DNA of 56,169 nt from Candidatus Kapaibacterium sp. (GTDB taxonomy: Bacteria; Bacteroidota; Ignavibacteria; Palsa-1295), in assembly GCA_046590195.1 (NCBI GenBank), contig JBKJTP010000084.1, positions 1-56,169 on the forward strand. The letters are read 5' to 3'. Made by a program: the position numbers and the translations under genes. Shown here in pieces: positions 7,015 to 45,933 of this stretch (within the stretch, counting starts at the first letter, position 1; each line of letters starts with the position of its first letter). The notes beneath the pieces were generated by a model. It worked only from the letters and a program-made list of their open reading frames with translations. It did not search any database and was not told the DNA's origin.

Positions 7015-8793
7015 ATGTACGAACATTTGGAACTTCTGAATAGTAAGAAAACATCAACCGAAGAATTCATTGCACAGTACAAGGCTGCACACAAAGCCAA
7101 GCTGTCCAAGGAGCAGTTCTCCAAGCTTCTAGGCATCATGCCCGAGTCCATGCGTCGTCGTCGCTGGGCTGTCAGTAAGTCCAGCAGTGTTATGCTGCCG
7201 GAGTTGAAGTCCAGTGCCGATCAGGCTGAGCCGGACCACATTCCGCAGGATAAGCTTGAGAGCTACTACACCAATTTACAGGAACTAACCAAGAACGCCG
7301 CTGGCCGTTCCGAGATGAAGAACATCTCCGGCTTTAACCGTTATGTCATTACATCGGCGCAGAACAACACCCCGGTGCATGAGAAGTTCCTGTACACTCT
7401 GAACAACTACTGTGAGGTCAATGACGCTTGTCTGGTGGTCATTCCCTACCGCTACAAGAACCCGACCTCCGTCTTCACTCCGACGCAGGAATCCGAAGAA
7501 ATCTGGAATCCTCGCCTGACGCCATACATCATCGACGAGATGACTCGCCTGTCGAATAACTTGGTGCTTCTAGCCAATGTTAAAATCCAACCTACGGCCA
7601 TTCAGCCGCTATCCGGGTTCGACGGCTACACCGGTCTCGATTCCGCCATTCTAGGACACCCGAAGATTCAGCTTGTTACCGTCCCGACCCCAAGCCAGCA
7701 TCTTCCGAAGATTCTAGCCACCACGGGCTCCGTAACGCTGCCTAACTATACGGACAGCAAGGCCGGCTGGAAGGGTGAGTTCCATCATAGTCTCGCTGCA
7801 ATAGTCGTTGAAATCGACGCAGACGGTGACACGCACATCCGTCACATTCACGCTGACGATGTTACCGGGCACTTCTACGACCTCGACAAGTGCTACACCC
7901 CGACCGAAGTTACAGACGGCCACCGTGCCGCTGCACTGGTCACGGGCGACACCCATGCCGAGTTCATGGACGATAAGGTTAAGGCCGCGACGTATACGAA
8001 TGTAGACTCCATGTGCAGCCTACTACGTCCGGAGGTTATCGTCCGTCATGACGTGGAAGACTTCTACGCTCGTAACCATCATCACCGTGGCAATGACCTC
8101 ATTGCATTCGGCAAGCATCACTTCGGTCGTGACAATGTAGAAGAATCGCTACAGATTACAGCGAACTTCATTGACGAAACTACCTACCCGGAGAGCGTCA
8201 ACATCATCGTCAAGTCTAATCATGATGAGGCGTTGGACCGTTGGCTTCGTGAGGCCGAGCCAAAGTACGACCAAGAAAATGCCGTACTGTATTACTACAT
8301 GAAGTTCCATCAGATGCGTAATGTTCGCATGACGGAAACGGGATTTAGCAGCATCGACCCGTTCGAGTTCTGGTGTCATAATCCATTAGACCAGAAGGGT
8401 CTACGTAACAAGGCGCAGACCAAGTTCCTGAAGCGCGATGAGTCGTTCCGCGTCTCTGACGTGGAGTTAGGTTTCCATGGCGACATCGGTCCGAACGGAG
8501 CGCGGGGCAGCATCAAGTCCTTCGCCAAGATAGGTCCGAAGACCATCATCGGTCATAGCCATTCTCCGGGTATCCACGAGGGTTGCTATCAGGTCGGCGT
8601 CAGTGCCAAGCTCAACCTCGAATACGCTTCAGGTCCAAGCTCGTGGTCGCACACGCACTGCATTGTCTATCCGGATGGCTCGCGTACACTGGTCCACGTA
8701 ATCAATGGCAAGTGGCGCACCGCTGGCACGGTACCGCAGGATGACAAGGGTAAGGTCCGAGTAAAGTTCATCGACGCTATTGACGCAGAATAA
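7015..8793 (+). CDS. calcineurin-like metallophosphoesterase-domain protein with a ~300-aa unknown N-terminal region
   Basis: The ordered metallophosphoesterase motif set is visible: TGDTH (DxH), HDVEDF (GDxxD-like), KSNHDE (GNHD/E), GFHGD, GHSHSPG (GHxH). Confidence 0.55.
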   Translation: MYEHLELLNSKKTSTEEFIAQYKAAHKAKLSKEQFSKLLGIMPESMRRRRWAVSKSSSVMLPELKSSADQAEPDHIPQDKLESYYTNLQELTKNAAGRSEMKNISGFNRYVITSAQNNTPVHEKFLYTLNNYCEVNDACLVVIPYRYKNPTSVFTPTQESEEIWNPRLTPYIIDEMTRLSNNLVLLANVKIQPTAIQPLSGFDGYTGLDSAILGHPKIQLVTVPTPSQHLPKILATTGSVTLPNYTDSKAGWKGEFHHSLAAIVVEIDADGDTHIRHIHADDVTGHFYDLDKCYTPTEVTDGHRAAALVTGDTHAEFMDDKVKAATYTNVDSMCSLLRPEVIVRHDVEDFYARNHHHRGNDLIAFGKHHFGRDNVEESLQITANFIDETTYPESVNIIVKSNHDEALDRWLREAEPKYDQENAVLYYYMKFHQMRNVRMTETGFSSIDPFEFWCHNPLDQKGLRNKAQTKFLKRDESFRVSDVELGFHGDIGPNGARGSIKSFAKIGPKTIIGHSHSPGIHEGCYQVGVSAKLNLEYASGPSSWSHTHCIVYPDGSRTLVHVINGKWRTAGTVPQDDKGKVRVKFIDAIDAE

Positions 8794-36017: not shown

Positions 36018-37088
36018 ATGAAGAACACAGTTACCGTCTATATTGGGCGCTTCCAGCCTCCGCATCGCGGCCACATTCTCACGGCCAGCCATGCCCTCGA
36101 CCATGCCAATCGTGTCATCGTTGTCATCGGGTCGCATAACTCCCCTCGCACCATCGTTAACCCGTGGACCGCTGCTGAACGCGAAGACATGTTCCGTGCC
36201 GCTTTGTCGCCGGAGCATAACCAGCGCATCGAATTCGTCTATGCCGAGAATCGGCTCTACAGCAATGCCATGTGGGCTCGCAACGTAGAGCGTCAGGTCA
36301 ACGAGGTCATTGCTAGCTTCAACTTCATCAAGCCAACCATTTCCATCATTGGCAACGGTAAGGGTGACCCTGACACGGACAGCTACATCAACATGTTCAA
36401 GCAGTGGAAGCGCCTCCCGGCCAAATGTATTCGCATCAGCGACACCCCGCTCAATGCTACTAAGCTCCGAGAACTCATGTTCACCGGATATACCGGGCTG
36501 CTTGAGGGTCCGATTTCTGGCGGAGCGTTCAATCTTATCAAGGTGTTTACCCAGACACCTGAATTTGCCGCATTGAAGACCGAATACGACGATGGTATTG
36601 CATACGAAAAAATGTATGCCAACGTTCCGTACAACAACATGAACTTTTACACGGTGGACTCGGTTGTCATCCAATCGGGTCATGTGCTGTTGGTGCAGCG
36701 CGGTCATACGCCGGGTAAAGGGTTGTGGGCATTACCGGGTGGTCATGTTAACCAGAACGAGACATCGGCACAGGCGTCGATTCGTGAGCTTTATGAGGAA
36801 ACCGGCATCAAAGTTCCCCGTAAGGTGTTGGAAGGTAGCCTATTCTGTGAGAAGTTGTTTGACCATCCAGACCGCTCGCTTCGCGCCCGTATCACCAAGA
36901 AGAATGCCCGCACCGTAACTGTTGTATTCGGGTACAAGCTTGATGATGCCGCAGAACTCCCGAAGGTTGTCGGTAGTGATGATGCCACAAAAGCATATTT
37001 CTTCACCTTTAATGAAATTTTGAATATGAGAGATTCCATGTTCGAGGACCATTTTGATATTTTGGAATATTTTATCACCAGAGTATAA
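36018..37088 (+). CDS. natV: bifunctional NMN adenylyltransferase / Nudix hydrolase (NatV/NadM-like)
   Basis: Nucleotidyltransferase motif GRFQPPHRGH. C-terminal Nudix box GGHVNQNETSAQASIRELYEETGI (Gx5Ex7REUxEExGU). Confidence 0.85.
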   Translation: MKNTVTVYIGRFQPPHRGHILTASHALDHANRVIVVIGSHNSPRTIVNPWTAAEREDMFRAALSPEHNQRIEFVYAENRLYSNAMWARNVERQVNEVIASFNFIKPTISIIGNGKGDPDTDSYINMFKQWKRLPAKCIRISDTPLNATKLRELMFTGYTGLLEGPISGGAFNLIKVFTQTPEFAALKTEYDDGIAYEKMYANVPYNNMNFYTVDSVVIQSGHVLLVQRGHTPGKGLWALPGGHVNQNETSAQASIRELYEETGIKVPRKVLEGSLFCEKLFDHPDRSLRARITKKNARTVTVVFGYKLDDAAELPKVVGSDDATKAYFFTFNEILNMRDSMFEDHFDILEYFITRV

Positions 37089-37125
37089 ATACCTACAATC
37101 AAAGTCGTGATGACGGAGTGTAGGT
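37084..37125 (+). promoter_or_regulatory. TATAAATA late-promoter consensus abutting a 7-bp hairpin that spans the SD-to-start region of the endonuclease gene
   Basis: TATAAATA at 37084-37091. ACCTACA (37091-37097) pairs with TGTAGGT (37119-37125). GGAG at 37115-37118, ATG at 37127. Confidence 0.5.
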
Positions 37126-37126
37126 A

Positions 37127-38044
37127 ATGCGAAATAAATGGACTACCGAACTAATGCTAATAGAGATTAGAAAGAGATTAGGCGATAGTATACGAGTTCC
37201 GAAAGACTTTAAGTATGAAGGAATTGATACTTTAGCAACATTTATATGTGAAGTACATGGGGAATTCCAAAAATCCTGTTATAGTTTACTTAAAAGCAAA
37301 ACTCCATGCCACTGGTGTGCCCCCAACCACAAAAGGACTTGGGCGGAGATTGAAGAGAAGATGGAGCTTATACACGGTAAAAAATACGATTATTCCTTAT
37401 GTCAGAAAACGTACATGCCTAAGTATAAGCTTAGCATTATATGCCCGGAACATGGAGTGTTCAAACAATCCGCTGCCGAGCATCTAACGGGCGCTGGTTG
37501 TAGAGTGTGTTACGAGGACAAGAATAGATTATCAATCAATACATTTCTAAAAAATAGTATTGAATTACATGGTGAAAATTACGATTATCAAAAAGTTTTT
37601 GAAACGTTTAGAAATGGTAGGTCGAAGGTAGAAATAATTTGTAAGAGACATGGAGTATTTACACAAAAGGCCACCGACCACTGTAGGGGTGTAGGATGTC
37701 CGTCTTGTCGTTCATCTAAAGGGGAACAACAAATTGAAAGATTTTTGAAAGCTACTCTTATTGATTTCATAAAACAGAAGACGTTCCCAGATTTAAGGTC
37801 ACTACGAGGGGGTTATCTAAAGTATGATTTCTTTATACCATCTCTTAATTGCTTAATAGAGTACGATGGTGTCCAGCATTTTAATGAAATAGGCCATTTT
37901 GACCACCAAAGAACAAAGGAATCTGATTTACTGAAAGATGAATATGCTAAGCTGAATAAAATCTTACTAATAAGAATACGTTATAACGAAGATGTGAACC
38001 AAAAATTAGAAGCTCTTATTTCATCATTGACAACTACACCGTAA
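37127..38044 (+). CDS. free-standing homing-endonuclease-like protein: three Zn-ribbon DNA-binding repeats plus a Vsr/PD-(D/E)xK (EDxHD-type) nuclease domain
   Basis: Repeats [IL]HGx[KN]YDY....C..HG.F.Q.....H..G.GC..C. C-terminus YDFFIPSLNCLIEYDGVQHF...HFD. Strongly AT-rich relative to the flanking natV and nadV. Confidence 0.65.
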   Translation: MRNKWTTELMLIEIRKRLGDSIRVPKDFKYEGIDTLATFICEVHGEFQKSCYSLLKSKTPCHWCAPNHKRTWAEIEEKMELIHGKKYDYSLCQKTYMPKYKLSIICPEHGVFKQSAAEHLTGAGCRVCYEDKNRLSINTFLKNSIELHGENYDYQKVFETFRNGRSKVEIICKRHGVFTQKATDHCRGVGCPSCRSSKGEQQIERFLKATLIDFIKQKTFPDLRSLRGGYLKYDFFIPSLNCLIEYDGVQHFNEIGHFDHQRTKESDLLKDEYAKLNKILLIRIRYNEDVNQKLEALISSLTTTP

Positions 38045-38078
38045 AGATATACAATAATAACAACATCAACAACGACAC

Positions 38079-39521
38079 ATGGGAGACATGGTCATGAATA
38101 ACCAGAATATCAGAAGCAAAGACCTACTTAAGAACGTCTGCATTAATTCAGATTCCTACAAGCAGGGGCACTTCAAGTTCATGAAGGCTGGCACCACGTC
38201 CGTATTCATCTACGGCGGACCTCGTACAGGCGCAAAATTCAAGGATGTCGTGCCCTTCGGACTTCAAATTTACACCAAGAACTTCCTTCGTCGCCGGGTG
38301 ACCCGGAAGATGATTGAACAAGCGGCAGTCTTCATGACATGCCACGGCTTACCCTTCAATCGCGAAGGCTGGGAGTACATTCTCGAAAAGCACAACGGCT
38401 ATCTCCCGCTCCGCATCAAGGCAGTTGAAGAAGGCACCATCGTGCCAGAAGGCAACGTTCTGTTTACAGTCGAGAACACTGACGCAAACTGTGCATGGGC
38501 CACCAACTTCATCGAAACGCAAATTCTTCGAGCCGCATGGTACGGAACCACAGTCGCCACCCTGAGCCGCGAGTTCAAGCGAATCATCAAGAAGTACCTT
38601 GACCTGTCTGGTGACGCTTCCGGCCAGAGCTTCAAGCTGGTGGACTTCGGTGCCCGTGGCGTTTCGTCCTTCGAGAGTGCCTACATCGGCGGTGCAGCCC
38701 ATCTGGTCAACTTCATGACCACGGACAACCTCGTCGGTATCGCTGCGTCCATGGAATACTACGGCGTGAAGTACATCACTCCGGAGACCATCACTGGTGT
38801 GAGCATCCCGGCCTCGGAACATGCCGTGACCACTGAGCGTGGTCGTGACGGTGAACTTGAGTTCTTCTCGGACTCCATTGACACCTTCTTGACCGGCCCC
38901 GGTACGATGGTGTCGTTGGTCAGCGACACTTATTCGCTTCGCAACGCTATCAAGCTGTTTGGTGTGGACCTGAAGGATAAAATTATCGCTTCGGGTGGAA
39001 CGGTTGTAGTTCGTCCGGACTCTGGCGACCCGGTCGAGCAGGTACTGTTCACGGTATCCGAGCTTGACAACTACTTTGGTGTCACGGTCAACGAGAAGGG
39101 TTACAAGGTGCTGCATCCATCCGTCCGCGTGATTCAGGGTGATGGTATCAGCATCGACACCATCGAACCCATTCTTGAGGCCCTGACGAACGCAGGGTAC
39201 AGTGCCGACAACCTGACTTTCGGGAGTGGCGGTGGATTGCTGCAAAGCGTAACCCGTGACACCGAACGCTTCGCTCAGAAGGCTTCGCATGTAGTTGTGG
39301 ATGGGGTCGGTAAGAACATCCGCAAGGAATGTGAGACTGACCCAACTAAGGCTTCGCTTGCTGGTCGTCTGGAACTGGTTCGCCGTAACGGTCAGGTGCT
39401 GACCGTCACCGAAGAGGAAGTTCTGGCGACTGACAACAAGCTGTTGAAGGTCATCTATGAGAACGGCAAGCTCAAGAACCCGGTCAAGTTCGAGAAAGTA
39501 CGAGCCAACGCCAGTTTATAA
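38079..39521 (+). CDS. nadV: nicotinamide phosphoribosyltransferase (Nampt/NadV)
   Basis: Length and blocks NSDSYKQGH, DFGARG, PDSGDP, IQGDGI, FGSGGGLLQ are typical of Nampt. The exact start (38079/38088/38094) is uncertain. Confidence 0.85.
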   Translation: MGDMVMNNQNIRSKDLLKNVCINSDSYKQGHFKFMKAGTTSVFIYGGPRTGAKFKDVVPFGLQIYTKNFLRRRVTRKMIEQAAVFMTCHGLPFNREGWEYILEKHNGYLPLRIKAVEEGTIVPEGNVLFTVENTDANCAWATNFIETQILRAAWYGTTVATLSREFKRIIKKYLDLSGDASGQSFKLVDFGARGVSSFESAYIGGAAHLVNFMTTDNLVGIAASMEYYGVKYITPETITGVSIPASEHAVTTERGRDGELEFFSDSIDTFLTGPGTMVSLVSDTYSLRNAIKLFGVDLKDKIIASGGTVVVRPDSGDPVEQVLFTVSELDNYFGVTVNEKGYKVLHPSVRVIQGDGISIDTIEPILEALTNAGYSADNLTFGSGGGLLQSVTRDTERFAQKASHVVVDGVGKNIRKECETDPTKASLAGRLELVRRNGQVLTVTEEEVLATDNKLLKVIYENGKLKNPVKFEKVRANASL

Positions 39522-39524
39522 CCG

Positions 39525-39548
39525 AAAGGGCCGCTCAAGCGGCCCTTT
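39525..39548. terminator. bidirectional terminator hairpin between nadV and the convergent endonuclease remnant
   Basis: AAAGGGCCGC, loop TCAA, GCGGCCCTTT: a 10-bp stem with A/T runs on both sides. Confidence 0.7.
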
Positions 39549-40101
39549 CCTTATGTGATATAGACCAACCTACGGTTTGTGGTAGAAGTGATGAGTGCTT
39601 CGACTTCCTCACGTTCGTAATAGTGTGTGGAATTGGTCCCTTATTGACGTACTTCAGAAGAGAGTAGTAATGTAGCCCCATCTGCTCGCAGAAGTTCTTG
39701 ATGTCATCTTTAAGTATTTCAAATACTATACCTGCTGGCCCACTCACTTCGTATGTTTTGGTCTTGGCCTTGCTCAGCATGCGACGATGTTCTATCGTTT
39801 TTGCTACCCCACGTAGACCAGCACTTATTTTATCGCGATTATCTTGACGCTTGGCGGGGTTCGCATCTCCATATAAAGCAGACTCTCGACACTTCTGTTT
39901 AATCTTTTCAATTGTAGTGTCTGAATGGCGCTTGCCATAGAAATGATTAATGTCACCAACTCTTCGACTCATTCTTTTCGATTGTGCTTTCTTGTTTTCC
40001 TCAGTGTGCTTCTTTCCATAGAAACTATTCTTGTTTCCGCTCACATCGTCACTATGAAATCCGAAGCCCCCAAGTTTTATATTATAAGTATCGTCACGCA
40101 T
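39535..40101 (-). CDS. homing-endonuclease-derived protein retaining NUMOD3-type DNA-binding repeats but lacking the GIY-YIG catalytic N-terminus
   Basis: Starts at ...YNIKLGGFG, which corresponds to the end of a GIY-YIG domain (compare NMTSGGDG in the ORF at 53051-53764). Then NSFYGKKHTEENKK and NHFYGKRHSDTTIEKIK repeats. No GIY or YIG motifs. AT-rich. Confidence 0.55.
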   Translation of the reverse strand: MRDDTYNIKLGGFGFHSDDVSGNKNSFYGKKHTEENKKAQSKRMSRRVGDINHFYGKRHSDTTIEKIKQKCRESALYGDANPAKRQDNRDKISAGLRGVAKTIEHRRMLSKAKTKTYEVSGPAGIVFEILKDDIKNFCEQMGLHYYSLLKYVNKGPIPHTITNVRKSKHSSLLPQTVGWSISHKERAA

Positions 40102-40104
40102 CAA

Positions 40105-40322
40105 CCAGTCGGCGACAACTCCAAGGCGTCCAAGCGTGGCCGTCTGACGCTGGTCCGTGATGCCAAGACTGACAAGTTGGAGACCATGCGTCTGGATGAG
40201 ACGAGTGTGGTAGCAACAAGGAATACGTGGACATGATGGTAACGGTATACGATAATGGCCCGGTCGAAAGTGCTTACGTTACCTTCGACCAAGTGCGTGC
40301 TGAGAGCAACAAGTACTTGTAA
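40105..40322 (+). pseudogene. orphan, frameshifted duplicate of the nadV 3' end
   Basis: DNSKASKRGRLTLVRDAKTDKLETMRLDE.. then, after a 1-nt frame change, SNKEYVDMMVTVYDNGPVESAYVTFDQVRAESNKYL*. This aligns with the nadV end DPTKASLAGRLELVRRNGQVLTVTEEE..TDNKLLKVIYENGKLKNPVKFEKVRANASL*. Confidence 0.6.
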
Positions 40323-40349
40323 CCAACACGTCAATTCTGTAAACTGAAT

Positions 40350-40380
40350 GCCCCGAGTGTAATGCTCGGGGTATTTCTTT
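40350..40380 (+). terminator. intrinsic terminator, presumably the ancestral nadV terminator
   Basis: CCCCGAG (40351-40357), loop TGTAATG, CTCGGGG (40365-40371), then TATTTCTTT. Confidence 0.7.
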
Positions 40381-40414
40381 GTGGCTTAGCCAAGCTCGCT
40401 CCCATTTCTCATAA

Positions 40415-40421
40415 CTAAATA
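40415..40421 (+). promoter_or_regulatory. late-promoter-like CTAAATA upstream of the capsid gene
   Basis: taACTAAATAac, 20 nt before the ATG at 40442. Confidence 0.4.
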
Positions 40422-40441
40422 ACAAAAACAAGGTGAAAATT

Positions 40442-41647
40442 ATGTCTATAATCAAGAAGTTAAAAGAAAAACTCAATCAATGGAAGCTTCAACTCAATGG
40501 TAAGCTAGCCGATCTAGAAACGCTGGTGATGGGAAAGCTGTGGGTAATCGCGAAGTTAGAGAAGCTGTATGGTGCGATTCGAACCCTGCTAGACAAGCAC
40601 GCGCATGCTAGACGCGTTCGTCTTATTGACGAATTGATAGCCTCATCGAATCTGTATAATGCTCATCCCGTAGCTGTCAAGACTATAGCTATGAATGTTC
40701 TAGTAGACCAGCCTTCCGATCCCTCTAGCAGCGTTAAGACTGAACTACTAATTGCGATTACCATTCGTACCGCAATTACAGTGTTGAATGAAGTCGGGGC
40801 CATAGCCGGCGTCCAGCCGATGCAGTCACCAATCGGTAAGGTCTATTCGATGGAATATCTTGATGCGGCTACACGAGAGACACTTTCGGATGCCGAACTC
40901 TGTCCTGAACCGTTGGACTTGAATTCTCCTAATCCGCTTCCGCGTAAGTTTTCACTAGCAATCATCTCTAAGGCCATAGAATCTCATACCAAAAGGCTAC
41001 AGGTGTCGTGGACATTTGGACTGCGCGACCTGAAAGCTTTCCACGGCTTAGATATTGAAGCCGAAATTGCTAAAGCAATTGTCTCCGAAATCTCATATGA
41101 AATACTAAGCAATGTGCTTCATGAAATAGTGGCTACCTCGCCTCATGTTGAATTGTCTTTCGCATTGGAAAGTCCCCTCCCCGCTAGTCAGAGATTGTCT
41201 ATCAATTTGACAATGCTAGCCAGTGATATAGCACGCACTACGCGACGCGGTTCTGGTAATTTCATCGTTTGCTCTCCCCTTGTCGTCTCTCTTCTACAGG
41301 CATGCCCTGAGTCTGTATTCTCGCCGGCAATCGAGGGTTCCTTCAAGGGTCCGAACAACTTTACTTATGCTGGCATATTGAACGGAGTCATTAGGGTTTA
41401 CTGCTATATCTGGGAAGGAAATAATGGTGCCGGCACTGATAGAATTCTAATGGGTTATAAGGGTGGAAACGGTGAAACTGACGCCGGATACATTTTTGCC
41501 CCGTATGTATTGATATCCCCTTCCGGTGTCGTCGTCAACCCGGTCACGTTCCAGCCGCAACAGCAACTCATGACACGCTCCGGAAGTCTATTCCACGGTA
41601 AGAACTACTACCGCGTTCTGGACCTAAAAGACTTGGAATTCTGTTAA
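40442..41647 (+). CDS. T4 gp23/gp24-family capsid protein (major capsid or vertex protein; lacks the gp23 insertion domain)
   Basis: Blocks vs remembered T4 gp23: LNQWKLQLNG/LNKWKPLLEG; IAGVQPMQSPIGKVYSM/ICGVQPMNSPTGQVFAL; LRDLKAFHGLDIEAEI/AQDLRAVHGMDADAEL; RRGSGNFIVCSP/GRGEGNFIIASR; GYKGGNGETDAGYIFAPYV...FQPQQQLMTRSG/GYKGPNEMDAGIYYAPYV...FQPVMGFKTRYG. I prefer the ATG at 40442 to the GTG at 40433. Confidence 0.85.
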   Translation: MSIIKKLKEKLNQWKLQLNGKLADLETLVMGKLWVIAKLEKLYGAIRTLLDKHAHARRVRLIDELIASSNLYNAHPVAVKTIAMNVLVDQPSDPSSSVKTELLIAITIRTAITVLNEVGAIAGVQPMQSPIGKVYSMEYLDAATRETLSDAELCPEPLDLNSPNPLPRKFSLAIISKAIESHTKRLQVSWTFGLRDLKAFHGLDIEAEIAKAIVSEISYEILSNVLHEIVATSPHVELSFALESPLPASQRLSINLTMLASDIARTTRRGSGNFIVCSPLVVSLLQACPESVFSPAIEGSFKGPNNFTYAGILNGVIRVYCYIWEGNNGAGTDRILMGYKGGNGETDAGYIFAPYVLISPSGVVVNPVTFQPQQQLMTRSGSLFHGKNYYRVLDLKDLEFC

Positions 41648-41672: not shown

Positions 41673-41713
41673 ATCTATGCTAAACCGCTAAATAGATGTA
41701 CGAATCGAGGTTC

Positions 41714-41962
41714 ATGATGAAAACACTATCCCTACTCTCTTCACTCACGGTTGATAAGCCGAAGCCAATTGTAACCGAATCCACAGAAACTGCCACTCGG
41801 CAGTATCAAGTGTATCTCTTGGACACCAAGGAAGGCCGTGCTAAGATTGCCGTTCCTGTCGAAATGGTTGAAGCTTTCGACCTCTATGTGGAAGGTAATC
41901 CGGACAAGTTAGCTTCCATCAACGAACATCTGGCTACCTTTGAAGCCGTTATAGTAGAGTAA
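41714..41962 (+). CDS. hypothetical small protein
   Basis: GCTAAATA at 41687-41694 abuts the first ATG (41696), so I prefer the start at ATG 41714 (SD GAGG). Confidence 0.45.
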   Translation: MMKTLSLLSSLTVDKPKPIVTESTETATRQYQVYLLDTKEGRAKIAVPVEMVEAFDLYVEGNPDKLASINEHLATFEAVIVE

Positions 41963-41965
41963 TAA

Positions 41966-42706
41966 ATGGCAACCTATACCATAACAACGGCTGCCAACAA
42001 AAAGCATCTTCATAAGAGAATGTGCGTATATCTCATTCGACACAAGATATCAAACAAGATTTATGTAGGACAAACTATCCAGCAGTTGGGTCGGCGTTGG
42101 CGGGCACACTTGAGTGTGGCAAGTGGAGCAGGACGTAGTGCAATAAAAGCAGCCATTGCAAAATATGGCGCAGACGCGTTCGAGTTCCAATTTCTTTGTC
42201 AGGTAGAAACTCAAAACCAGTTAGACGCGAAAGAAATTCATTGGATTGCCAAGTTAGATACACTGTCACCCAACGGTTACAATCTCAATACCGGTGGAGG
42301 GGGAGGTAAGAAACATTCCGAACTAACTATCAAGCGAATGAAGTGCGCTGCTAAAGCACGATTTGACAGAGAAGGTAGAACAGTAATACCCGAAACAGAA
42401 GCTCAGTTGGCGATACGCCGAGTCAAGTGGGCAGAGGCTAGCAGAAAACGTGCTTTAGGTAACACCTACAGAAGAGGTCAGAAATCTTCTGAGGAAACGT
42501 GTAGAAAAATCACCAAGGCAAAAACAGGTGTGCTGATTCCTGCTAGATGGAAGCCTATCGTGTCATCTGACGGTAAGGTATACAAAAGCGTAGGTCATGC
42601 GGCAACTGCCATAGGATGTAATAAATCAACTTTGATGCGACATCTAAACGGCAGCTTAAAATCTGTGTATAAAAAAACCTATTCCTATTACAGAAGTGTT
42701 GACTGA
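41966..42706 (+). CDS. GIY-YIG homing endonuclease (Seg/I-TevI-like) with NUMOD3-type repeats
   Basis: CVYLIRHKISNKIYVGQT..LGRRWRAH, E..WI, NGYNLNTGGGGG, KKHSELTIKRMK, C-terminal HTH-like GCNKSTLMRHLNG. Confidence 0.85.
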   Translation: MATYTITTAANKKHLHKRMCVYLIRHKISNKIYVGQTIQQLGRRWRAHLSVASGAGRSAIKAAIAKYGADAFEFQFLCQVETQNQLDAKEIHWIAKLDTLSPNGYNLNTGGGGGKKHSELTIKRMKCAAKARFDREGRTVIPETEAQLAIRRVKWAEASRKRALGNTYRRGQKSSEETCRKITKAKTGVLIPARWKPIVSSDGKVYKSVGHAATAIGCNKSTLMRHLNGSLKSVYKKTYSYYRSVD

Positions 42707-45700
42707 TGGCTACGTTCACTATCACGGTTGCGCAAAATATCGACGCCCTAGCCTCTAAGGTCGGCTCCGATACCTACAATATTAACGGTGGGTATCTTAC
42801 TGTTGACCAGCACACTCGTTATGGTACCAACCAGAATACCAGCGCCGGCATGGGTAACATTACTATGTCTGCGTCGTTGGGTGGTACGATAGAATTTAAC
42901 AGTACCTTGGTCAGGGCGATTGCATACGACACGGGTACCGGTAACGTTCCGGCCCTTGGTACTACGATTTCCAAAGGTAGCGCAAGCGGTATTCTACTCG
43001 GGGTTTATTCGGCCCTCAACGTGGCTCCAACCACGGCTGGCTCGGCCATGCCAGCCTCTGGCTACATTCTAATCCGTCAGTGGAACGAAGTTGCATACTC
43101 CACAGGTGCTTTGACTGGCATCACCGCTTCCGCGACTGCGGCCGACCGCGCCGGTTGGTTGGAAATTGTAGGGGTTGATGCGCTAACTGCTACCGTGAAC
43201 CGATTGAACCTGTTCAAAGTTCGTGGAGCCTATTACGATTTCCAAGGTGTCACTACAGACGGTACGCGAGCAACTACCTACCAGCTTCCAACAAATGGTG
43301 CATTGGTCTATCTTCCCGGTGTCGAAGTTGAAACCGGAACGGGTACAGGTGTATACGAAGCCTACCCATGTGCCGGCTCACTCACCGCCCTCGCTGCCAA
43401 CATCGCCACCGACGCGGTACGTGGTAAGGTATGTTGGATTAGCACGGCAGGATTGGTCCGTTTCGGACACGATGGCACGAACAGCACTGGTGGCTACGTA
43501 CCACCGTCCGGCCGCAAGATTCGTGTCCCTAACATCTTCTTCAATTGCTGTACTGCCGCCGCATTGACAGTCAATGTTATTCCGAACGCAACACCTGCGA
43601 CTCGCTATGAATTTGCTACTACGGGTGGTGGTGTAATTGATTTTGACAAGGCCAGCGTCAACTGGTACCTGAATATCAATCAGCCTTTCTCAGTAGCTTT
43701 AACCGATACAGGTGTGATGGGAACTGTCACGATGACAGAATGCGCTTCCCCTATAGCGTGGTCTAACGTATATGTTGGACAGGAAGCAGCAACCACCTTA
43801 ACGCCATTTCTAATGAGCTTAAACTTTGCGGGCGGCACAATGACCAATTGTGTTTGGTCCCGCGCCAGCACAGGTGTTTCTGGTGCCTACATCGGCAACT
43901 GGACCGACTGTTCCGGGTTTACGATAACAGGCGAACGGTCATTCTCACTCGTTAAGGGAGCCAATGCCACGACCGGCACGATGTCATTGGTTCGCGTGTC
44001 CAATTGCTCTTGGACAAACACTACGCTCGGTGCTGGACGCGTTTTGCAAACTACTTGCACAAACGTAACCATGACCAACTCAATTTATTACGATCACCCG
44101 GCAACCACCACCCCAACGGCAATTCCGATGTTTGCATTTGATATTGCTTCGGGCTGCTCGAACTCGATTTTTGATGGGCTAACATTTGGTGGTTTGACAA
44201 TGGTCCAGCCGTACTCTGGCATCTTGAACATCGGTGCTGCCGGTTGTACAAATATCAAACTTAGAAATCTAGGAACAGCGGCCTCTCCACTTGATATGGG
44301 CAATGCATACGTTGATGCTACTTGGGCACGTACTACTACAACCATGACAGTAACAAAAACGGCACATGGATTGAAGACCAATGACCTGATTGCGGTCAAT
44401 ATCGTATCCGACGTTGCGCCTAAAGCTGTCACCACGACTACTGCGACACTATGGACAGTTGCCTCAGCGCCGACTGCTGATACCTTTACCGTTACTGTCA
44501 CCAGTGCCGGTGCCACGTCCGGCACTATGTCGTATTACCCAACCATGGCCGGCACTTTGGTGGCTCTCGCTGCCTCTGCCGCTGCGAACAGCGTTAAGGT
44601 ACAACGTTGCTACACCCCCCACTTGCGTACCGGTGTGATGTCGGGCGATAACTCGTCAAAGAACATTACACTCGAAAGCGTATGGGGTACCGAATGGGGC
44701 GTCCAGCTTATGCCAGAACTGAACGCGATAATGCGCGGCATCCAATCAACTCCCGCATTAACCGCTCAGACATCCGTTTACGGCACCCACTATTTCGACT
44801 ATTACACGACTGGCGTTCCTGCCAATCTAGCTGCGGTAGCATGGGCACGTTCAACAACAACGGCGACCATTACAAGTACGGGGCATGGACTGCGAACCGG
44901 TGATTTGATTAATGTGACGGTAACATCTGACGCAGCGGCCATCGTCAAGGGACAGAAGACCATTACCGCTACCACAAGCAATGCTTTTACGTTCACGTGT
45001 TTGAACGCGGGCGGTACTTCAGGTACTTTGACATTTGCACCATTGAACGGCCGAATTGCCATTCAAATGAATGAGACGACTTCGGAAACTACTGCACAGA
45101 TTACATTGTCTAGTTCTAACTTCACATCGGCTGGCGGGTTGTACATGCCAGACGTAAACGACCAAGTTGACTTCACGTTTCCGACAAACGTTTGTGGACA
45201 TAGTAGTTTTCCGATTTCGGAAGCAGTCATGGCCGGCGGCACGATTGCTAATTACGACATTACCTACTCGGTGGATGGTGGCGTTACATACAAAAACCTT
45301 GCCTATACAAGAGCCGGCGGTGGCGGTTCCAACGCCTCTACGAACGTAACAATGACCGCCACTACGGGCGTCGCTACGGGCGACTACGTGTTCGGTACGA
45401 ATATCGCGCCGAATGCCAAAGTAACTAACATTACAAACGGAACCACGGTTGTGGTTGACATCGCCAATATCGGTGCGGTGTCTGGTGTTCTTCGGTTTAA
45501 CCAGATGCCAAATGAAGTCGTGTCCGACCCAACGGTTGGCATCCCTTTCAGAGTTAGAATTAAGACTACGACCGCGAACGCACTGTCCATCACATCACTC
45601 TATGCATTCACCGTTAGCACCACGGCGGCTCGCGCTGCCACTTACCCGATGGATACGGTCGCGGCGTCGCTATACTTGTATGGAATGGAAGTAGGCACTG

Positions 45701-45933
45701 AAGTACGAGTCTATCAAACGTCCAATGACGCGGCCGTCGCCGGAATAGAGTCAACAGCAAGTACCACTTTCACCTATAACTATACGTGGTCCGGAACTGA
45801 TACTAACGTTTATATTGTAGTGTTCAGCATGACCGCTCAGCCGATTCGTTATACCAATCAGGTTTTGGGTCAGGCCGGCTTAACAATTCCAGTCCTGCCC
45901 GTAATCGACAGGCAATACAGCAACCCGGCCTAA
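42706..45933 (+). CDS. large T/A/G-rich virion structural protein (1075 aa) with beta-helix-like centre and internal ~65-aa repeats
   Basis: Repeats WARTTTTMTVTKTAHGLKTNDLIAVNIVSD...TFTVTVTSAGATSGTMSYYP and WARSTTTATITSTGHGLRTGDLINVTVTSD...AFTFTCLNAGGTSGTLTFAP. C-terminal DRQYSNPA. Confidence 0.65.
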   Translation: MATFTITVAQNIDALASKVGSDTYNINGGYLTVDQHTRYGTNQNTSAGMGNITMSASLGGTIEFNSTLVRAIAYDTGTGNVPALGTTISKGSASGILLGVYSALNVAPTTAGSAMPASGYILIRQWNEVAYSTGALTGITASATAADRAGWLEIVGVDALTATVNRLNLFKVRGAYYDFQGVTTDGTRATTYQLPTNGALVYLPGVEVETGTGTGVYEAYPCAGSLTALAANIATDAVRGKVCWISTAGLVRFGHDGTNSTGGYVPPSGRKIRVPNIFFNCCTAAALTVNVIPNATPATRYEFATTGGGVIDFDKASVNWYLNINQPFSVALTDTGVMGTVTMTECASPIAWSNVYVGQEAATTLTPFLMSLNFAGGTMTNCVWSRASTGVSGAYIGNWTDCSGFTITGERSFSLVKGANATTGTMSLVRVSNCSWTNTTLGAGRVLQTTCTNVTMTNSIYYDHPATTTPTAIPMFAFDIASGCSNSIFDGLTFGGLTMVQPYSGILNIGAAGCTNIKLRNLGTAASPLDMGNAYVDATWARTTTTMTVTKTAHGLKTNDLIAVNIVSDVAPKAVTTTTATLWTVASAPTADTFTVTVTSAGATSGTMSYYPTMAGTLVALAASAAANSVKVQRCYTPHLRTGVMSGDNSSKNITLESVWGTEWGVQLMPELNAIMRGIQSTPALTAQTSVYGTHYFDYYTTGVPANLAAVAWARSTTTATITSTGHGLRTGDLINVTVTSDAAAIVKGQKTITATTSNAFTFTCLNAGGTSGTLTFAPLNGRIAIQMNETTSETTAQITLSSSNFTSAGGLYMPDVNDQVDFTFPTNVCGHSSFPISEAVMAGGTIANYDITYSVDGGVTYKNLAYTRAGGGGSNASTNVTMTATTGVATGDYVFGTNIAPNAKVTNITNGTTVVVDIANIGAVSGVLRFNQMPNEVVSDPTVGIPFRVRIKTTTANALSITSLYAFTVSTTAARAATYPMDTVAASLYLYGMEVGTEVRVYQTSNDAAVAGIESTASTTFTYNYTWSGTDTNVYIVVFSMTAQPIRYTNQVLGQAGLTIPVLPVIDRQYSNPA

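Follow-up and report, generated by a model that had tools for sequence, protein, structure and literature searches.

Anatomy of the nadV locus

In a 56,169-bp metagenomic contig (JBKJTP010000084.1, Candidatus Kapaibacterium sp. assembly GCA_046590195.1; this whole stretch is referred to as the window), an intact nadV gene, encoding nicotinamide phosphoribosyltransferase, is followed by a truncated homing endonuclease gene on the opposite strand and then by a second, divergent nadV C-terminus, termed the orphan. Compared with homologous loci of other phages, the locus is probably the decayed relic of a homing endonuclease cassette that lived inside nadV. Loci and proteins used for comparison carry L and P numbers, respectively; lengths are in nucleotides (nt) or amino acids (aa), and ORF stands for open reading frame. 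The features of the locus are:

38027-38055, + strand: promoter-like site (TTGACA, 17 nt, TACAAT; agrees with the consensus at 11 of 12 positions), at the left end of the exchanged nadV module
38079-39521, + strand: live nadV, 480 aa, Pfam NAMPT_N plus NAPRTase, A-type throughout (types are defined below)
39219-39263, + strand: codons FGSGGGLLQSVTRDT of live nadV, homologous to the cassette insertion position in L084 and L241
39524-39549, both strands: two-way hairpin terminator T1, common to nadV and the convergent endonuclease gene
39535-40101 (ATG start) or 40104 (TTG start), - strand: endonuclease remnant, 188-189 aa, NUMOD3 and C-terminal DNA-binding part only
39535-39592, - strand: C-terminal tail of the endonuclease (SSLLPQTVGWSISHKERAA, then stop), which persists as a stub in the endonuclease-less L082
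40099-40104, no strand: deletion junction, at which endonuclease residue 78 meets the orphan codon 'QPV'
40102-40322, + strand: orphan B-type nadV C-terminus, ~72 codons, whose reading frame changes between 40201 and 40211
40346-40380, + strand: terminator T2, a hairpin with a U-tract

A first-pass annotation of this DNA had placed the end of an intact nadV at 39521, followed by a bidirectional terminator (39525-39548), a minus-strand ORF (39535-40101) with two NUMOD3 repeats that had lost its GIY-YIG half, a plus-strand segment from 40105 encoding a second Nampt C-terminus with a 1-nt frame change, and a classic terminator (40350-40380). The nadV gene was confirmed with both domains, and all four of the features behind it were found at, or at most 3 nt from, these positions; they are borne out, respectively, by a strong fold on each strand, by Pfam plus alignment to an intact homolog, by profile matches plus alignments, and by a stable fold at 40346-40376.

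As judged by Pfam, the live gene encodes a full-length Nampt/NadV, in which NAMPT_N is joined to NAPRTase. T1 is 26 nt long, begins three bases past the nadV stop and overlaps the last codons of the endonuclease gene. Its folding energy is −21.9 kcal/mol on the plus strand and −22.4 kcal/mol on the minus strand (z −6.6 and −5.1, respectively), and none of 200 shuffled sequences was as stable. A simple terminator scan of the window did not list T1, because its T-tract is weak. When T1 was aligned with its counterpart in L082 (7986-8011), one base pair was found to be changed on both sides, from G-C in the window to A-U in L082, with the stem kept.

The orphan nadV end and its terminator

The orphan reads QPVGDNSKASKRGRLTLVRDAKTDKLETMRLDE in the frame of 40102 and SNKEYVDMMVTVYDNGPVESAYVTFDQVRAESNKYL, then stop, in the frame of 40101, and the frame change between the two is consistent with a 1-nt deletion. 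Against a hidden Markov model (HMM) of nadV C-termini from which orphans had been excluded, the two halves matched at E 4.2e-5 and 2.7e-3, respectively, and fell on the adjoining model positions 103-136 and 133-168; the joined peptide aligned with other phage nadV products at their very C-termini (for L009, 47% identity over 68 aa, E 2e-10). With only the last ~72 residues covered, the orphan counts as a gene fragment and does not belong among the Nampt/NadV genes proper. T2, which belongs to the displaced nadV end, has a folding energy of −20.7 kcal/mol (z −5.8), is followed by UAUUUCUUU and was listed by the terminator scan.

Alignment of the live end with the orphan, which had been proposed as a check, revealed two ends that are homologous yet diverged, with 31-34% protein identity and a weak nucleotide match of 43 nt only. 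'Duplicated', as the second end had been called, is thus a misnomer: the ends are homologous, but they belong to separate nadV lineages and are no recent duplicates. The closest matches of the orphan were found instead in the nadV end of L240 (53% aa identity, and 74% nt identity over the last 81 nt), in that of L239 (48%) and in the orphan of L084 (44%).

A truncated homing endonuclease and its intact homolog

Sizeable minus-strand ORFs are rare in the window, where long ORFs lie almost all on the plus strand, and the remnant (its 188-aa form is annotated by NCBI as P0122) is one of the few. Pfam found NUMOD3 in it twice (E 1.3e-8), in agreement with a NUMOD3-type DNA-binding part, and no GIY-YIG domain; PHROG 314 'homing endonuclease' was matched at E 2.7e-13. 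The only homolog found, the 265-aa P0123 of L084, is 58-59% identical to the remnant over residues 78-265, with the NUMOD3 region conserved as well, and carries 77 additional N-terminal residues. These residues would form the catalytic domain, as judged from their alignment (E 1e-5) with the Pfam-positive GIY-YIG domain of another ORF of the window (41966-42706) and from a PHROG 314 match of the N-terminus at E 4e-43; Pfam itself ranks the N-terminus below threshold (SegE_GIY-YIG, E 1e-3), and the match to the I-TevI structure 1LN0 reaches E 0.2 only.

At the nadV site, L084-L086 carry the endonuclease gene in full and the window carries it in truncated form; L082 retains a stub, and L242, L233-L235 and L239 lack the gene. 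Such variable presence at a fixed site is that of a free-standing, Seg-like GIY-YIG homing endonuclease.

The frame of the remnant is still open for 188 codons, with its ATG exactly at the deletion junction, while the adjoining orphan is frameshifted. The sequence upstream of the remnant showed neither a convincing promoter nor a convincing ribosome-binding site.

An intact element and its insertion site in other phages

An endonuclease ORF between a complete nadV and a second, divergent nadV C-terminus was found in the window and in L084, L085 and L086, which stem from three sequencing runs and have one common layout. In L084, nadV (478 aa) is followed by a hairpin immediately 3' of its stop, which contains the stop codon of the endonuclease gene, then by the reversed endonuclease gene (P0123) and, right after ~58 nt upstream of that gene, by a 100-codon nadV fragment. 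This fragment begins with the best-conserved motif of the enzyme, GGLLQMVNRDT. The flanks are unlike those of the window, with a NADAR-domain gene upstream and a gene for an 866-aa protein downstream. Among 80 other nadV loci, none had a stranded nadV C-terminal fragment behind nadV, the remaining double matches (L056 and L073) being of a different kind.

A further junction, in the 545-bp contig L241, was reached by searching 1.84 billion representative proteins with the orphan peptide. L241 carries only the first 11 endonuclease codons; over its first 92 nt it is nearly the same as L084 in endonuclease 5' end, upstream region and junction. Identity between the two loci is 80-90% from the endonuclease 5' end across the upstream region and the junction, remains so for ~45 nt into the orphan, and then falls to ~60% and lower. 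G+C content (GC) differs as well: in L241 it is 0.62 in both orphan and adjacent host DNA and 0.29 on the endonuclease side, and in L084 it is 0.459 in the orphan, 0.464 in the downstream gene and 0.368 in the endonuclease gene. Because of this GC match and the drop in identity, the orphan is best seen as host DNA past a short co-converted patch, with the endonuclease gene as the incomer. In both hosts insertion took place at the same nadV codon, and both orphans start at the GGLLQ motif.

Whether the orphan is the native C-terminus was thus addressed by composition, in that orphan GC equals that of adjacent host DNA in L241 and L084, and also by comparing L084 with the cassette-free L239, where the orphan is 56% and the live 3' end 47% identical, a weak difference.

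Decay states and the deletion junction

The element was found in four states: intact in L084; without catalytic domain and with a 72-codon orphan in the window; as an endonuclease tail in L082; and as an orphan tail in L242. In L082, the minus strand right after the shared hairpin reads SLLPNTIGWVISHKKKAA, then stop, at the position equivalent to the tail SSLLPQTVGWSISHKERAA of the window. This stub corresponds to the last 18 codons of the endonuclease gene (30 of 44 nt match, which is unique among 15,940 positions; 77% over 13 aa by tblastn). In L242, T1 is followed at once by the last 12 codons of the orphan (FAEVRAEANKYL, then stop) and then by the second terminator; the alignment score of this orphan tail is 40, as compared with a maximum of 30 in 2000 shuffles. 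The nadV of L242 is 75% (protein) and 72% (nt) identical to that of the window and lies in yet another gene context.

Relative to L084, ~385 nt are gone from the window, namely 77 endonuclease codons, the ~58 nt upstream and ~32 orphan codons. For this reason 40101/40102 is regarded as a secondary deletion rather than a homing junction, and the truncation is most simply read as a later deletion that would have taken the ~32 orphan codons as well.

Behind the tail stub of L082, the sequence at 8055-8075 reads TATAGAAGCGCGTCTGTT and resembles the canonical junction of L241, TATAGAAGGTGGTCTGTT, at 15 of 18 positions (shuffle P value ~0.005-0.015); tentatively, it may be a relic of the junction between the endonuclease upstream region and the orphan. 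In L242, an HNH-type endonuclease-like ORF (3-512) was observed ~360 nt upstream of the A-type nadV, with a 104-aa ORF between them, which again places a nadV module near a nuclease gene, here in a third genomic context.

Two nadV lineages and exchange of the live gene

An identity matrix of nadV C-termini was used to type the ends. A-type ends, with mutual identities of 50-80%, are those of the live gene of the window, L082, L233, L234 and L235; B-type ends, with characteristic insertions and shared indels, are those of the orphan of the window, L240, L239, the orphan of L084 and P0133. The orphan of the window is 43-53% identical to B-type members and 30-35% to A-type ends. Full-length, cassette-free genes, such as those of L239 and P0133, are included in the B clade.

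L082, a 205-kb JGI contig in which natV, nadV and a gp23-like gene lie side by side, has no endonuclease gene, 305-aa ORF (described below) or orphan at this locus. The nadV genes of L082 and the window agree at 89.5% of aa and 79% of nt positions, and the similarity runs past the stop through T1 to 39592, yet the other genes are far less alike: natV and dCMP deaminase at 60%, a kinase at 57%, an HNH gene at 66% and the gp23-like gene at 29%, with flanks at 65-72% nt identity. For calibration, nadV was compared among five syntenic phages and is otherwise 59-71% identical, with natV at 45-62%. As 89.5% contrasts with 29-66% for the neighbouring genes, the live nadV has been exchanged horizontally between lineages. 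Nucleotide homology with the window starts at 38027 in L242 and at 38060 in L082; from these extents, the whole live nadV, from the promoter at ~38027 onward to the terminator, and not its 3' end alone, appears to be donor-type.

Several candidate patterns were tried and rejected. No identity gradient was found along nadV between the window and L082, where identity is 0.71-0.88 throughout. A conserved replacement 3' end in the window and L084 was dismissed at 39% identity, and so was a sister relationship between the orphans of these two loci, as if they had travelled with the endonuclease gene, because they are 44% identical and no closer to each other than to several unrelated nadV ends. The apparent 86-aa orphan of L239 proved to be a full nadV interrupted by a scaffold gap of Ns.

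The gp23-like gene (major capsid protein family; 40433-41647) that follows the orphan in the window was not at this position in L240. Together with its 29% identity to the L082 counterpart, this marks its position as a highly variable slot beside the nadV module.

A probable homing endonuclease cassette inside nadV

The observed anatomy, homologies, four decay states and nadV identity anomaly are accounted for if the locus is what remains of a homing endonuclease cassette resident in nadV, which we consider probable. The following course is proposed as to where cleavage takes place, how repair proceeds and in which order the events occurred. The intact element, as in L084, would comprise a replacement nadV 3' end of ~105 codons (from the conserved GSGGGLLQ/RDT motif to the stop), the two-way terminator, the opposite-strand GIY-YIG/NUMOD3 endonuclease gene and its ~58-nt upstream region, presumably with a promoter. 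During co-infection, the enzyme would cut a cassette-free nadV at or near the GGLLQ/RDT codons, and repair would copy the cassette, with nadV upstream of the site as the left arm and the old 3' end behind the endonuclease gene as the right arm; the conserved motif could offer short patches of homology even between nadV genes that are ~45% identical. The recipient nadV would stay working with a foreign end or more, having gained a terminator and an endonuclease gene, while its own 3' end and terminator would be shifted downstream as an untranslated orphan. Split by the insertion, the target site would leave the carrier immune, and once no targets were left the endonuclease gene would decay. In the window, the live A-type nadV would be that of the donor and the orphan the leftover of a B-type nadV; the ~385-nt deletion would have removed the catalytic domain, the upstream region and part of the orphan, and a 1-nt deletion would then have broken the orphan frame.

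A more far-reaching idea, to which we give limited credence, is that the stranded nadV 3' end is more than debris and acts as the right homology arm of the element. Placed in the best-conserved stretch of nadV, with nadV-derived sequence on either side, the cassette could home into any nadV regardless of neighbouring genes and would drag whole nadV alleles between distant phages. The presence of the element in phages of 46% and 62% GC fits homing of this kind. If true, it would provide a splice-free, portable way for a homing endonuclease gene to inhabit a viral protein-coding gene. As a weaker corollary, the 188-codon NUMOD3-only ORF may have been retained as a DNA-binding protein.

As to where the displacement happened, L240 (807 bp) is informative: its nadV end matches the end of the orphan and is followed by a terminator, and downstream lie homologs of the window ORFs 41696-41962 and 42706-45933. 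The product of the latter is 87% identical between L240 and the window and 63% between L240 and L082, which suggests that window-like phages natively carry B-type ends and favours a local origin. An older origin is favoured by the A-type genes of the syntenic relatives and by L242, which shares the orphan type behind a nadV of 72% nt identity. On this evidence the displacement probably took place in an ancestor or donor, so that the invasion would predate this phage; the composite locus (promoter, A-type nadV, T1, endonuclease gene, B-type orphan, T2) may then have reached the window as one piece, by descent or by transfer.

The first-pass annotation had described a mobile endonuclease cassette that arrived with a foreign nadV 3' end, displaced the resident end and its terminator, and then decayed. 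The core of this account is upheld by L084-L086 and L241, and later decay by the stubs of L082 and L242 beside the intact homolog in L084-L086; its restriction of the foreign part to the 3' end does not hold, given a live nadV that appears donor-type over its whole length. Cassette-free relatives with an orphan-like 3' end had been expected; L240 has an orphan-type end ahead of window-like downstream genes, but the nearest syntenic relative without the cassette, L082, has a live-type end and an endonuclease stub.

Several observations weigh against this reading. The nadV end of L240 has an in-frame TAA stop and a ~22-residue insertion relative to other nadV ends, and may itself be a decaying orphan; L240 is also the single locus that places a resident B-type end in this lineage, where every syntenic relative with a whole nadV locus (L082, L233-L235 and L243-L245) carries an A-type nadV. 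Three of the loci, L240, L241 and L242, come from samples ERZ28573518, ERZ15185027 and ERZ22666005, respectively, and their contigs are short (0.5-2.5 kb). Among the sampled loci, no intact endonuclease gene stands beside an A-type nadV. Over their live 3' ends, the nadV genes of the window and L084 are 39% identical, as compared with 45% over the rest of both genes, which gives no direct sign of a replacement end travelling with the endonuclease in the long term; chimerism of the live gene of L084 is weakly indicated. Finally, the putative cleavage target is deduced from three junctions.

The A-type presence in all whole-locus syntenic relatives would also be expected if the live nadV were a vertical resident, downstream of which an endonuclease gene and a foreign B-type fragment had landed, with nothing resident displaced. 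On this account the orphan travels with the module, as suggested by the orphan type and second terminator that the window shares with L242. However, the 89.5% identity of nadV between the window and L082, with neighbours at ~60%, means that the live gene is not simply vertical, and L082 has the endonuclease stub joined to the same nadV. Moreover, the orphans of L084 and L241 match host GC and differ from each other past 45 nt, and L240 sets an orphan-type end beside window-like downstream genes. An earlier displacement would still be needed to join an endonuclease gene to a nadV fragment, so that this course, which we regard as unlikely, differs mainly in the place of the event. One step of aberrant homing would suffice if 40101/40102 had arisen from one-end invasion, partial copying of the endonuclease gene and end-joining to the resected recipient end. 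The junction looks as expected from failed second-end capture, and no intact version of the A-linked cassette was sampled; but the canonical GGLLQ junction is common to L084 and L241, L082 and L242 show module deletions of differing extent, and L082 possibly keeps the tentative canonical-junction relic described above, which together make such a step improbable.

The two nadV segments are homologous, adjacent and in the same orientation, which would follow from a tandem duplication of the nadV 3' end, its divergence and insertion of an unrelated endonuclease gene between the copies. With the low protein identity and weak 43-nt match of the two ends, their differing indel patterns, an orphan nearer to the nadV ends of other phages (45-53%) than to its neighbour, and the same architecture in other hosts with other orphans, this is very improbable; a neutral copy so diverged in place would not remain readable with a single frameshift. 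That an assembly chimera or sequencing error lies behind the orphan and its frameshift can be given almost no credit: although a single metagenomic contig makes up the window, SRR31159418 was also assembled separately in Logan, with 100% identity to the window over 36283-40338 (4,056 bp), frameshift included, and homologous architectures were found in L084-L086, L241, L082 and L242.

Relation to known mobile endonucleases

The closest precedent for a cassette in nadV is the mobile endonuclease ORF (mORF) of fungal mitochondria, which carries a replacement C-terminus. mORFs make gene hybrids, as in atp6 of Allomyces macrogynus and in atp6, atp9, cox2 and nad3 of Glomus (Beaudet et al. 2013, PMC3630166, citing Paquin et al. 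1994). In both systems an endonuclease ORF lies inside a conserved gene that is completed by a foreign C-terminus, with a second, divergent C-terminus downstream; in the fungal cases this is the displaced native one, similar to the C-termini of relatives (PMC3630166), and in nadV it is putatively so. In contrast, the present host is a phage and the target an auxiliary gene for NAD salvage. While mORFs are usually in frame or co-transcribed, the endonuclease gene converges on nadV in both the window and L084, lies on the opposite strand, is preceded by an upstream region of its own and ends in a two-way terminator that nadV uses as well. Furthermore, the live gene of the window appears donor-type over its full length, and four decay states can be compared.

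The free-standing GIY-YIG and HNH homing endonucleases of T4-like phages (Seg and Mob) are known for intronless homing with co-conversion (Edgell et al. 2010, PMC2988022). The GIY-YIG plus NUMOD3 architecture, variable presence, co-converted flanking markers and insertion at a functionally critical motif are shared with them. In T4, insertions are intergenic or split a gene into two polypeptides, such as mobE in nrdA, mobA in the topoisomerase gene and a seg gene in gene 43 (PMC2988022). Unlike the genes in these cases, nadV is kept whole by a replacement end that arrives together with the endonuclease gene. Gene-end replacement is not described in reviews of T4-type endonucleases, and 'duplicat', 'remnant' and 'pseudogene' are absent from PMC2988022.

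Homing endonuclease gene (HEG)-islands consist of cargo between endonuclease genes, with >90% nt identity and endonuclease turnover (Barth, Dunham and Seed 2023, PMC10448857). Similarly, nadV has the 305-aa ORF on one side and the GIY-YIG remnant on the other, and between the window and L082 it is far more conserved than its background. However, the cargo is a single non-essential metabolic gene instead of an essential multi-subunit module, one of the flanking endonucleases is defunct, nt identity is 79% and not >90%, and a displaced gene end lies outside the description of HEG-islands. A replacement end as such has a further parallel. Integrative elements in the 3' ends of tRNA genes also carry a replacement 3' end, so that their insertion has no phenotype; they use site-specific integrases and short identical att cores. 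The nadV cassette would differ from them in relying on double-strand-break repair over divergent homology, and it leaves a long divergent orphan.

In a literature search of limited coverage, no phage case of an endonuclease-associated gene-end duplication was found. Among isolated phages, megablast with 38000-40500 gave no match and distant blastn gave short nadV or natV matches only; thus no isolated phage is close. In IMG/VR, the window nadV retrieved relatives of at most 49% identity, the gp23-like gene one weak match and the L084 nadV none; closer relatives came from a large protein collection. Endonuclease-family scans of IMG/VR and JGI metagenomes (146 loci) found nadV adjacent only in L084-L086, with nadV ~4 kb off in L090. 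Exact and degenerate junction patterns had no match in viral or GTDB genome contigs; the orphan peptide matched only the window's own sequence among 5.8 billion proteins, and among the 1.84 billion representatives HMMER returned mostly short fragments, several of which were partial genes at contig ends (such as P0124 in L238) and not orphans. In principle the arrangement is nothing out of the ordinary for homing-endonuclease biology, but it is documented unusually well and, for phages, appears to be unreported.

Besides riding in an intron or intein and residing between genes, insertion into the core of a conserved gene with a spare gene end would give phage endonucleases a third solution, one so far described for fungal mitochondria. 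Its life cycle can be read from four genomes that span invasion, decay and loss, and it offers a route by which nadV, an auxiliary metabolic gene, may be swapped between phages that otherwise share ~60% protein identity. For annotators, short NAPRTase-matching ORFs beside endonuclease genes call for caution as displaced gene ends, not genes.

Neighbouring mobile endonucleases

The nadV module is flanked on the left by the following gene:

37127-38044, + strand: intact endonuclease-like ORF, 305 aa, GC 0.36

It matches PHROG 559 'HNH endonuclease' (E 3.8e-55), a large family with 2181 places in 999 phage records, as well as PHROG 9084 'homing endonuclease' (E 1e-25) and, weakly, Pfam DUF723 and DUF5889. 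A homolog of 50% identity lies in the same natV-nadV gap of L245 (3194-4120), while L243 and L244, which are 95-99% identical in nt, lack it and have other small genes there (in L243 including a NADAR-domain gene). Given this variable presence at the natV-nadV site across L243-L245, the 305-aa ORF is a second mobile endonuclease of the locus.

Further downstream, the intact GIY-YIG ORF (41966-42706) begins MATYTITTAAN and thereby copies the first ~11 codons of the large gene behind it, which starts MATFTITVAQN directly at the stop of the ORF (42706-42740). The large gene of L082 has the same TAATAAATG context at its start, where 25 of 33 nt are identical to the 5' end of the GIY-YIG ORF, and the start of the large gene of L240, aligned with window position 42706, reads ATYTITT. 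From these start sequences, 41966-42706 looks like a mirror image of the nadV case, with an endonuclease gene inside the 5' end of a gene, whose start would have been taken over and a replacement 5' end supplied.

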